In this document: piece by piece, positions 2,934 to 5,337 of the stretch
Layout: each line of letters begins with the position of its first letter
How positions within the stretch are numbered: position 1 is the first letter of the stretch
Virus record (IMG/VR): IMGVR_UViG_2548876943_000007
Source: a virus
Lineage: Duplodnaviria > Heunggongvirae > Uroviricota > Caudoviricetes
Reading direction: 5' to 3' (one strand)
DNA length: 5,337 nt
Notes under the pieces: generated by a model
Seen by the model: only the letters and a program-made list of their open reading frames with translations
Databases searched by the model: none
What the model was told of the DNA's origin: nothing
Program-made: the position numbers and the translations under genes

Positions 2934-3095
2934 ATGACAAAACGTCGTAAGAAATACCAGGAAAAAGAAGAGATTCGACACCCTGATTCACCTGAGGGAT
3001 TAGTGGTAGCCGCAGCAAATAACAGGGCGTTCGCAGAGCGCCTTGTTGGTGTTTACAGACTAGCCAAAGCAGGAGTGAAACATGGGCGTCGTTAA
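2934..3095 (+). CDS. Small basic hypothetical protein (53 aa) between cII and O, overlapping the O start by 14 nt
   Basis: ATG at 2934 preceded by AGGAG (2924-2928) at 5-nt spacing. Translation [53 protein letters not shown], stop TAA at 3093-3095. Absent from the ORF track only because it is shorter than the track's length cutoff. No family recognised. Confidence 0.5.
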   Translation: MTKRRKKYQEKEEIRHPDSPEGLVVAAANNRAFAERLVGVYRLAKAGVKHGRR

Positions 3096-3912
3096 GTTAG
3101 CTGATTACAGGCCTCAACTGGAGGTCGTGGAGCATCGCGTGGCAGAACTCGAAGATGGCTACACTCGGACTGCAAACACACTGTTAGAAGCCGCCATGCT
3201 TTCTGGACTTACTCTACATCAGTTACTGATTGTTATGGCTGTGTGGCGCAAGACATACGGTTACAACAAAAAAATAGATTGGATCGGAAACGAACAGTTC
3301 GCTGAACTCACTGGCATGGCACCAACCAAATGTTCTACCGCCAAAAACGAGCTTATCAGAATGGGAGTTCTCATTCAGGTGGGGCGTCAAGTTGGTATGA
3401 ATACAAACATTTCAGAGTGGAAAACGAAAGTTAACGGATTTGGTAAAACATTTACCAAATCGGTAAAACAAACCTTCACTAAATCGGTAAAAAGCAATTT
3501 ACCGAATCAGTCAAACACAAAAGACAATATACAAAAGACAATAAATACAAATACCCCCTTACCCCCTAACGGGGGCGGCGATGGGCAGGTTAAACCTGAA
3601 CGTCGCAAGGCAGAACGAATCGACTACGAATCCTTCCTGAACGCCTACAACGCCGAAGTCGGTGACAGACTGCCACACGCTGTTGCGGTCAACGAGAAAC
3701 GCAAACGCCGCCTGAAGAAAATCATCCCGCAACTGAAAACGCCAAATGTGGACGGTTTCAGAGCGTATGTCAGGGCGTTTGTGCATCAGGCCAAACCGTT
3801 TTACTTCGGAGACAACGACACGGGCTGGACGGCTGATTTTGATTACCTGCTGAGGGAAGACTCGTTAACGGGAGTTCGGGAAGGGAAGTTTGCAGACAGG
3901 GGGATTGCATGA
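3082..3912 (+). CDS. O: Replication initiator, lambda O-like (276 aa), with the origin embedded in the coding sequence
   Basis: ORF track 3082..3912 (+). N-terminal region [15 protein letters not shown]...[45 protein letters not shown]...NISEW resembles the lambda O origin-binding domain as recalled from memory. A central low-complexity linker ([47 protein letters not shown]) is encoded by the iteron and AT-rich DNA. The stop overlaps the helicase start (ATGA at 3909-3912). Confidence 0.9.
3439..3580. repeat. Candidate origin of replication: dyad iterons (3439-3459 TTTGGTAAA-ACA-TTTACCAAA; 3484-3505 TCGGTAAA-AAGCAA-TTTACCGA; GGTAAAA repeated at 3442, 3462, 3485), an AT-rich tract with tandem CAAAAGACAATA (3508-3553), then a GC-rich CCCCC...GGGGG element (3554-3580)
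   Basis: Directly visible repeated and inverted GGTAAA/TTTACC motifs inside the O-like gene, followed by an A-rich region and a GC-rich dyad. This is the same layout as lambda ori (iterons, AT-rich region, palindrome) inside the O gene. Confidence 0.8.
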
Positions 3913-5285
3913 GACAGGATATCGAAGCGAGCGTTATCGGTGGCCTGCTGATTGGTGGATTAACTCCAACCGCCAGTGACGTTCTGGCAACGCTTGAGCC
4001 GGAAGCGTTTTCAATTCCGCTCTACAGGAAAGCCTTCGAGGTTATCCGCAAGCAGGCGCGAAACAGAAACCTAATCGACGCGCTGATGGTTGCCGAGGCG
4101 TGCGGAGAGGAGCATTTCACGTCAATCCTGATGACCAGCAAAAACTGCCCGAGTGCCGCAAACCTGAAGGGATATGCCGGAATGGTCGCGGATAACTATC
4201 ACCGCCGTCTGGTGCTGGAAATCATGGATGAAATGCGTGAACCAATTCAGAGCGGAACCATCGACGCATCGAGTCAGGCGATGGACGAGCTTGTAAAGCG
4301 TCTTTCAGCCATCAGAAAGCCCCGTGACGAGGTTAAACCTGTACGGTTAGGGGAAATCATCACCGACTACACTGACACGCTTGACAGGCGTCTGAGGAAC
4401 GGAGAAGAGTCAGATACCCTGAAGACCGGAATCGAAGAACTTGACGCCATCACCGGAGGGATGAACGCAGAAGACCTGGTGATTATCGCCGCTCGTCCTG
4501 GTATGGGGAAAACCGAACTGGCGCTGAAGATTGCCGAAGGTGTTGCAAGCCGCGTTATTCCTGGTTCTGACGTCAGGCGCGGAGTGTTGATTTTCTCGAT
4601 GGAAATGAGCGCATTGCAGATTGCAGAGCGAAGCATTGCCAACGCCGGGAGGATGTCGGTTAGCGTGCTACGAAATCCTGCATCGATGGATGACGAAGGC
4701 TGGGCACGTGTTGCTAACGGCATGAGTCAGCTTGCAGATTTGGATGTATGGGTAGTCGATGCCTCGCGGTTATCGGTAGAAGAAATTCGCTCAATCGCAG
4801 AGCGGCACAAACAGGAAAATCCAAACCTGTCACTCATCATGGCGGATTATCTTGGCCTGATTGAGAAGCCGAAAGCAGACCGCAACGACCTCGCAATTGC
4901 TCACATCTCAGGAAGCCTTAAGGCGATGGCGAAAGACCTGAAAACGCCAGTTATCTCCCTGAGTCAGCTTTCGCGCGATGTTGAGAAGCGACCAAACAAA
5001 CGCCCGACAAACGCAGATTTGCGTGATTCAGGAAGCATTGAACAGGACGCAGACTCAATCATCATGCTCTATCGGGAAGCGGTATATGACGAGAACAGTA
5101 GCGCCGCACCATTTGCTGAAATCATTGTGACGAAAAACCGTTTTGGCTCGCTTGGTACGGTTTACCAGCGGTTCTGCAACGGACACTTTGTTGCATGTGA
5201 CCAGGATGAAGCCAGACAGATTTGCACAGCATCAAATGCACCTGCTGCGCGTGGCAGACGATATGCACAAGGGGCTGACGTATGA
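3909..5285 (+). CDS. Replicative DNA helicase, DnaB family (458 aa; P22 gene 12-like)
   Basis: ORF track 3909..5285 (+). Walker [15 protein letters not shown], Walker B-like [10 protein letters not shown], and [39 protein letters not shown] matching the DnaB motifs (SQLNR...[17 protein letters not shown]) as recalled from memory. Translationally coupled to the O-like gene. Confidence 0.95.
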
Positions 5286-5337
5286 CCATCTACATCACTG
5301 GGCTAATAACAGGCCTGCTGGTAATCGCAGGCCTTTT
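5282..5337 (+). CDS. Partial 5' end of a downstream gene encoding a hydrophobic N-terminus ([18 protein letters not shown]...), truncated by the window edge
   Basis: ATG at 5282-5284 overlaps the helicase stop (ATGA, 5282-5285). The 18 visible codons are strongly hydrophobic, consistent with a TM segment or signal anchor. The frame is open to the window edge. Confidence 0.35.

Follow-up and report, generated by a model that had tools for sequence, protein, structure and literature searches.

In a 5,337-base stretch of DNA from the Caudoviricetes record IMGVR_UViG_2548876943_000007 of IMG/VR (the window in what follows), positions 3082-5285 hold two overlapping plus-strand genes, one for an O-type replication initiator of 276 amino acids (3082-3912; homologue of HK97 gp54, P22 gp18 and lambda O) and one for a DnaB-family replicative helicase of 458 amino acids (3909-5285; homologue of HK97 gp55 (P) and P22 gp12). 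Together, they very probably form a standard theta-replication module of the P22/HK97 type, from a lambdoid prophage or phage of E. coli. Modules of this type are familiar from the 1980s work on P22 gene 18/12 and from the HK97 genome, are treated as a standard class in the literature (PMC10307801, PMC8022706, PMC2669165), and have even been named, as the “P22 type DNA replication module”, an O homologue paired with a DnaB-like helicase (PMC10307801). The type is common in E. coli prophages, and the module in the window is hence ordinary. The initial annotation of this DNA had described a hybrid replication module. The parts that it listed are all there: a lambda-O-type initiator with embedded origin is coupled to its own DnaB-family helicase, in the arrangement of P22 18/12. 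What does not stand is the idea of a noteworthy hybrid, because the module is homologous to P22 18/12 and near-identical to HK97 gp54/gp55. The true hybridity is finer and had been missed: as far as can be read from DNA identity, it consists of a P22-type cassette at about 3150-3515 in an HK97-type backbone.

Profile matches identify the initiator as a member of the lambdoid O-type family. Residues 19-113 match Phage_rep_O (PF04492) with 123.8 bits against a cut-off of 28.7 (E=4e-36), the score for TIGR01610 (phage_O_Nterm) is 83.2 bits against a cut-off of 45.5, and phrog_345 (“replication initiation O-like”) covers residues 1-276 (E=6e-106). Residues 17-113 are 46% identical to residues 19-115 of lambda O (E=8e-29), and the lambda-O-like N-terminal domain that had been proposed for the protein is thereby confirmed. 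Over the whole initiator, identity amounts to 91% for BTP1, 76% for P22 gp18, 71% for HK97 and 29% for lambda, and a search of the PDB with the initiator sequence returned only chance matches (E about 0.3, to G-protein-coupled receptors). The coding region of the N-terminal origin-binding domain (3148-3420, plus strand, about residues 23-113) is of the P22/BTP1 sequence type, with a sliding identity of 87-97% to P22 and BTP1 against 42-63% to HK97. Judging from the homology to lambda O and the origin annotation of P22, this domain would bind the iterons specifically and unwind the origin. An AGGAG lies about 8 nt 5' of the initiator ATG.

The origin is embedded in the initiator gene. It contains four dyad-symmetric 17-bp iterons of P22 type, presumed to be the binding sites of the initiator (3431-3447, 3451-3467, 3475-3491 and 3498-3514). 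With at most three mismatches allowed, the pattern TTTACCNAATCGGTAAA is found at these four sites only (six strand-hits, which amount to four sites because each is palindromic), against an expectation of 0.03, and none of 200 shuffles matched the observed number. The start-to-start spacing of 20/24/23 bp is identical in the four annotated iterons of lambda and the four iterons of HK97, the first iteron begins 349 nt past the initiator ATG (348 nt in lambda), and the iteron region aligns with the rep_origin at 32840-32984 of the P22 record. The repeats of these phages fall into three families, ATCCCTCAAAACGAGGGA in lambda, ATTAGCCAAGTCGGCTAA in HK97 and TTTACCAAATCGGTAAA in the window and P22, and all three occupy one fixed scaffold. 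Directly to the right lies an A-rich tract (3515-3551; 78% A+T, 68% A), the presumed DNA-unwinding element, the sequence of which is identical in the window, HK97, BTP1 and P22, and the first 12 nt of which (ACACAAAAGACA) are as in lambda. In-gene iterons and an AT-rich origin on the lambda pattern, as had been claimed, are therefore present with lambda-like spacing and offset.

The right flank of the origin (TACCCCCTTACCCCCTAACGGGGGCGG, 3552-3578), with a short direct repeat and a 5-bp palindrome, encodes the joint peptide TPLPPNGGG and is kept in the window, HK97 and BTP1, and with 2 changes in P22. We also considered the short CCCCC/GGGGG palindrome that lies right of the A-rich tract as a counterpart of the lambda ori inverted repeat, and rejected it, because its folding is no better than that of shuffled sequence (z=0.81). 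The iterons are in frame and are translated as the interdomain linker, in which TFTKSVK occurs twice (3446-3500, residues about 122-141). Because of their location within the reading frame, a swap of iteron type also rewrites the linker, as comparison with HK97 (TLAKTANKTLAKSAN) illustrates.

The helicase gene starts on the stop codon of the initiator gene (ATGA, 3909-3912, with the helicase ATG at 3909), with a GGGGGA Shine-Dalgarno-like run 5' of the start. Its product scores 261.5 bits against 27 for DnaB_C (PF03796) and 49.6 against 23 for the DnaB N-terminal domain (PF00772), and residues 5-428 align to E. coli DnaB (6bbm, E=2.7e-66). The catalytic motifs are all intact and aligned with their equivalents in E. 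coli DnaB, namely Walker A (ARPGMGKT, 195-202), Walker B (LIMADYL, 309-315), SQLSR (352-356), SIEQDAD (376-382) and the C-terminal arginine motif KNRFG (409-413). The earlier description, of a full helicase of the DnaB family that has Walker A, Walker B and SIEQDAD motifs and a start overlapping the O stop, was accurate in each of these points. In comparison with E. coli DnaB (6bbm and others), the protein has the same two-domain architecture and the same ATPase and DNA-binding motifs; the first ~28 residues of the E. coli protein have no counterpart in the alignment, and the gene in the window adjoins an initiator gene rather than that of a DnaC-type loader. Between initiator and helicase, no loader gene is present, and no open reading frame (ORF) of the window, which ends 52 nt past the helicase gene, matches the lambda P loader family PF06992. 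In the near-identical module of HK97, the genes further downstream are gp56, gp60 and ninB, and none of them is a loader.

Among the named systems, HK97 is closest for most of the module. HK97 gp54 (O) and gp55 (P) (NC_002167, 29868-32062) have the same order and the same ATGA overlap, and the gp53-like ORF, the first 22 codons of O, the A-rich tract, the C-terminal domain and the helicase gene are 97-100% identical to the window at the DNA level. The helicase proteins differ at only two of 458 residues (A64E and E176D), compared with 44 of 458 for P22 gp12 (90% identity). The same system is found in mEp213, HK446, HK544 and the Stx phages 1717, 2851 and YYZ-2008. HK97 differs from the window in the DNA-binding domain of O and in the iterons, and this difference predicts a different origin specificity. 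The architecture is also that of P22 gene 18/gene 12 (NC_002371, 32488-34676) and of o/p in the Lederbergvirus BTP1, whose N-terminal domain and four iterons are of the same type as those of the window (87-98% DNA identity). P22 differs in the first 22 codons, the upstream small ORF and the central helicase DNA, which are HK97-type in the window, and in its host, which is Salmonella instead of E. coli. Existing annotations point in the same direction: the HK97 record describes O as “similar to Bacteriophage P22 Gp18” and P as “similar to DnaB”, and the P22 record lists gene 18 with an in-gene rep_origin “similar to phage lambda” and gene 12 as “similar to E. coli DnaB helicase”. Lambda shares the homologous N-terminal domain of O, the in-gene origin at matching offset, the four iterons with equal spacing, the opening 12 nt of the A-rich tract, and the start of the next gene on the stop codon. 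It differs in iteron sequence, in an unrelated C-terminal domain, and in the P loader (PF06992) that is encoded downstream in place of a DnaB-family helicase. With a DnaB-type downstream gene and an unrelated C-terminal domain, what the window carries is not a lambda O-P type module.

The mosaic structure was read from sliding-window DNA identity to HK97, P22 and BTP1. From 2955 to ~3150, the window is HK97-type (95-100% identity). The segment ~3150-3515 is P22/BTP1-type (87-98% identity), with only 42-63% identity to HK97. From 3515 onward, the window is again HK97-type (97-100% identity), and across the A-rich tract identity to HK97 climbs from 0.60 to 1.00. On this profile, the A-rich tract is the right-hand recombination joint from P22-type to HK97-type sequence. 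The P22-type segment comprises the coding region of the DNA-binding domain together with the four iterons, so that this specificity cassette has been exchanged as a unit, and the window is best described as a recombinant with such a P22-type cassette inserted into an HK97-type module. We would predict P22-type origin specificity, and hence P22-type incompatibility behavior, in an otherwise HK97-like replicon. In the 80 IMG/VR loci that encode a C-terminal domain at least 99% identical to that of the window, the N-terminal domain is of the window type in 12 cases, of the HK97 type in 65, and of a third O-family type in 3; in one locus (L010), N-terminal domain and helicase protein are both 100% identical to those of the window. 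The case is a clear illustration of lambdoid modular exchange, in which the origin-specificity cassette swaps and the C-terminal domain and helicase stay together.

The third O-family N-terminal domain (L052, 2398-3345, as well as L035 and L072; PF04492, E=4e-15) deserves mention on its own. In L052, it has no BLAST match to the N-terminal domains of lambda, HK97 or P22, carries a linker of His/Ala-rich repeats (HEAAQTTAH), and is fused, again at the TPLPPNGGG joint, to the same C-terminal domain and helicase. A third N-terminal domain on the same backbone implies a further origin specificity.

Database matches bear on the question of whether this could be a hybrid system for replication that is truly new and unlike that of either lambda or P22. 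In its favor, none of the 50,697 records of our GenBank phage collection contains the exact mosaic in full length at an identity of at least 95%. A megablast search with 3082-5285 matched 158 of these records; HK97, mEp213, HK446, HK544 and many Stx-converting phages gave 97-98% identity but over only 84% of the query, and BTP1, the best full-length match, gave 88.8% identity over 99% of it. Prophages do have the mosaic, however. It is present in the 12 IMG/VR loci already mentioned, and among the matches listed, at least 10 complete E. coli genomes contain the whole module in one piece at 98.1-98.5% identity, while some match exists in 724 of 5,426 complete E. coli genomes. As each segment is also 92-100% identical to a known phage, a new system is scarcely conceivable, and we consider the idea refuted by the phage, IMG/VR and E. 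coli genome matches. The sequence is in fact already annotated in many E. coli genomes, where PGAP names the two products “replication protein” and “replicative DNA helicase”. One 99%-identical copy of this enterobacterial module sits in a record labeled “MAG: Bacillota bacterium” (L085, JAEZIN010000021.1), most likely a mis-binned contig from an E. coli prophage.

A second question is whether the module might have lost its function and persist as a remnant in a defective prophage. Such defects affect many E. coli prophages, and disrupted copies of the same helicase gene exist: in E. coli, insertion sequences (IS) interrupt the module in H34 (IS100), H39 (IS3-family) and H67 (ISVsa5), and the helicase match is displaced by ~1.6 kb in the IMG/VR loci L006, L023 and L024. 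In these six copies, the replication module is probably inactivated. Split copies are also found in Arsenophonus. In the window, by contrast, both ORFs are full length with every motif intact, the helicase is almost the same as in HK97, which is a viable phage, the iterons agree with the P22 origin, and no damage is seen in the flanking genes cI, cro, cII and N, all of which makes decay a quite improbable explanation and favors a standard P22/HK97-type module.

The C-terminal domain of the initiator (residues 163-276, 3568-3909, plus strand) is of HK97 type and would be the surface that recruits the helicase. The initial annotation had predicted that it should diverge from lambda O, and it does so: the comparison with lambda O gives no similarity (E=3.8), and the domain is instead 59% identical to the C-terminus of P22 gp18 (E=3e-46). 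Neither Pfam nor NCBIfam contains a model for it, and the family has no significant match among PDB structures. An exhaustive search nevertheless gave 856 representative clusters (at 50% identity) with the domain, nearly always at the C-terminus of proteins of 230-400 amino acids. Its signature is YN..GD.LP...R+..I...FYFG.N.+GW.A.FD[FY]..R..T..REG, and two residues of the domain, G81 and W87 (G243 and W249 in initiator numbering), do not vary across 29 diverse members. An AlphaFold model from the alignment of these 29 members is confident (pLDDT 87.3, pTM 0.73) and mainly helical, and Foldseek matches it to viral predicted structures in BFVD that are named replication initiator, replication protein or replisome organizer (TMq 0.64-0.73), with lambda O not among the matches.

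Genes downstream of this domain show a strict pattern. In all 80 close IMG/VR loci, a DnaB-type gene follows (adjacent in 77, displaced by an insertion in 3), and a lambda P gene in none. A further 28 distant loci, from species-representative genomes of Enterobacterales, Pasteurellales and Orbales with 35-99% C-terminal domain identity, were found with a 9-sequence subset and a single peptide pattern, and are therefore biased toward members that keep FYFG-N-G; here, a DnaB-family gene abuts or overlaps the initiator stop in 25. Two of the others are Arsenophonus loci with a split gene ~200 nt downstream, and one is at a contig edge, which leaves 27 of 27 assessable loci with a DnaB-family gene and 107 of 107 in total. 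The linkage also persists with N-terminal domains that are no longer recognizable as O-like, and with helicases that have diverged to a phmmer E-value of ~1e-50. In a reciprocal control, all 79 assessable loci with the lambda-type C-terminal domain have a lambda-P-type gene next, and none has a DnaB gene there, even though the N-terminal domains vary. Across the public loci examined, a swap of partners between the two types of C-terminal domain was never seen. In the two Arsenophonus loci (L093 and L094, Candidatus Arsenophonus triatominarum, 3519-4893), the helicase is encoded by two ORFs of 320 and 139 amino acids, which fits prophage decay in an insect symbiont.

This linkage is what would be expected, though it is not proof, if the C-terminal domain were a partner-specific surface. 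We see an even chance that residues 163-276 act as a direct adaptor or loader for DnaB-family helicases, and replace a loader of the P, DnaC or DciA kind. The principal alternative is that a host factor, for example DnaC, loads the phage helicase, or that the helicase loads itself; the C-terminal domain would then serve elsewhere, in oligomerization, DNA remodeling or interaction with primase or polymerase, and it would occur together with the helicase gene only because the two are adjacent. This is unlikely in our view. Linkage that holds down to 35% identity, across three orders and with unrelated N-terminal domains, argues against it, as do the pairing of the lambda-type domain solely with P and the fold matches to phage replication initiators and replisome organizers. 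Furthermore, the lambda genetics of Furth et al. in 1978 reportedly places the contact with P in the C-terminal half of O. If the adaptor role is correct, the novelty lies in a widespread domain family, of which the window contains one ordinary member. In the searchable literature, we found no biochemical or structural description of how gp18-type initiators, which lack a dedicated loader, load their own DnaB-type helicase. The C-terminal domain family is the obvious target for this question, which concerns the family as a whole and not this locus in particular.

These considerations can be combined into a model for the replication of the phage. Rightward early transcription from pR would express initiator and helicase, and the ATGA overlap, which is directly visible, suggests that their translation is coupled. 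By homology and origin anatomy, the N-terminal O-family domain would bind the four in-gene iterons to form a lambda-like “O-some”, and the adjacent A-rich tract would then unwind, by analogy with lambda. Unlike lambda O, which recruits a P-DnaB complex, the C-terminal domain would directly recruit the phage-encoded hexameric DnaB-family helicase, a step for which the gene linkage speaks. The helicase may then work with host primase and DNA polymerase III, as the P22 gp12 literature, cited at second hand, indicates. P22 gene 18 carries four repeats of ~20 bp, unlike those of lambda (PMC8022706), and gp12 is described as a DnaB-type helicase in the same article, with reference to Wickner 1984. 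For the Stx2 prophage Sp5 of O157 Sakai, a DnaB-family “elongation protein” has been reported (PMC2669165).

The initial annotation had further suggested that the phage may bypass host DnaB and DnaC. Partial support comes from the hybrid phage lambda cI857(18,12)P22: at low multiplicity, its burst on a dnaB-GrpD55 host is normal, whereas rep-lambda has essentially no burst there (PMC3349717, Table 5). In E. coli, the P22-type module is therefore functional, and it can dispense with the P-DnaB route. Escape from the dnaB-GrpD55 block thus backs the proposed bypass in part, with DnaB itself not covered, and independence from host DnaC would follow from the model only by extrapolation. No test of P22-type replication in dnaC(ts) or dnaB(ts) hosts was found in the accessible literature.

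Several points weigh against the picture drawn here of an active module with a helicase-recruiting initiator. The GrpD55 result demonstrates independence from the P-DnaB interaction, but not from DnaB itself or from DnaC. The linkage could in part be mere physical adjacency, as the C-terminal domain is encoded right next to the helicase gene and ori is a place where recombination joints cluster; phylogenetically, the 80 close loci are not independent, and sequence to the right of ori tends to be co-inherited. In the accessible literature, we found no experiment that shows contact between a gp18-type C-terminal domain and a helicase. The helicase scores under the NCBIfam equivalog cut-offs (335.9 against 385.25 for TIGR00665, 312 against 498.65 for TIGR03600), and is therefore a divergent DnaB-family member, outside the equivalogs of cellular DnaB and of the TIGR03600 subgroup. 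Finally, prophage activity is not readable from the sequence of the window alone.

The surroundings of the module agree with its assignment, as the window is a typical lambdoid early region. The minus strand encodes an N-like antiterminator (229-534), a predicted 122-amino-acid membrane protein (1108-1476) and a cI-type repressor with HTH_3 and Peptidase_S24 domains (1495-2211), and the plus strand encodes a lambda-type Cro (2312-2512), CII (2621-2899) and, immediately upstream of the initiator, a gp53/orf48-like ORF of 53 amino acids (2934-3095; phrog_1331, E=1.4e-37). This last ORF occupies the position of HK97 gp53 and P22 orf48, a conserved context for the module, and overlaps the start of the initiator by 14 nt. 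Its DNA is 100% identical to HK97, the gene is not present in lambda, and equivalent ORFs have been described (PMC3349717).

An oop-like antisense unit is found on the minus strand at 2855-2941. The 33-mer ACTGGATCAATCCACAGGAGTAATTATGACAAA at 2909-2941 corresponds to the conserved oop promoter and 5' end (PMC3349717), and a terminator with a 14-bp stem and T-run, at 2897 to 2865 on the minus strand, overlaps the 3' end of cII. A search of the entire window against Rfam at E<=0.1 gave zero matches, so that a covariance model does not confirm the unit. N and cI are separated by an accessory-gene slot, which rexAB takes in lambda and bstA in BTP1; here it holds the 122-amino-acid ORF, which encodes a predicted membrane protein (phrog_6534, E=2e-79) and could be an exclusion or defense gene. 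At the right end of the window, a small hydrophobic ORF (5282-5337, plus strand) begins on the stop codon of the helicase gene in a second ATGA overlap; it has the position of HK97 gp56 and P22 ninA and runs off the end of the window.

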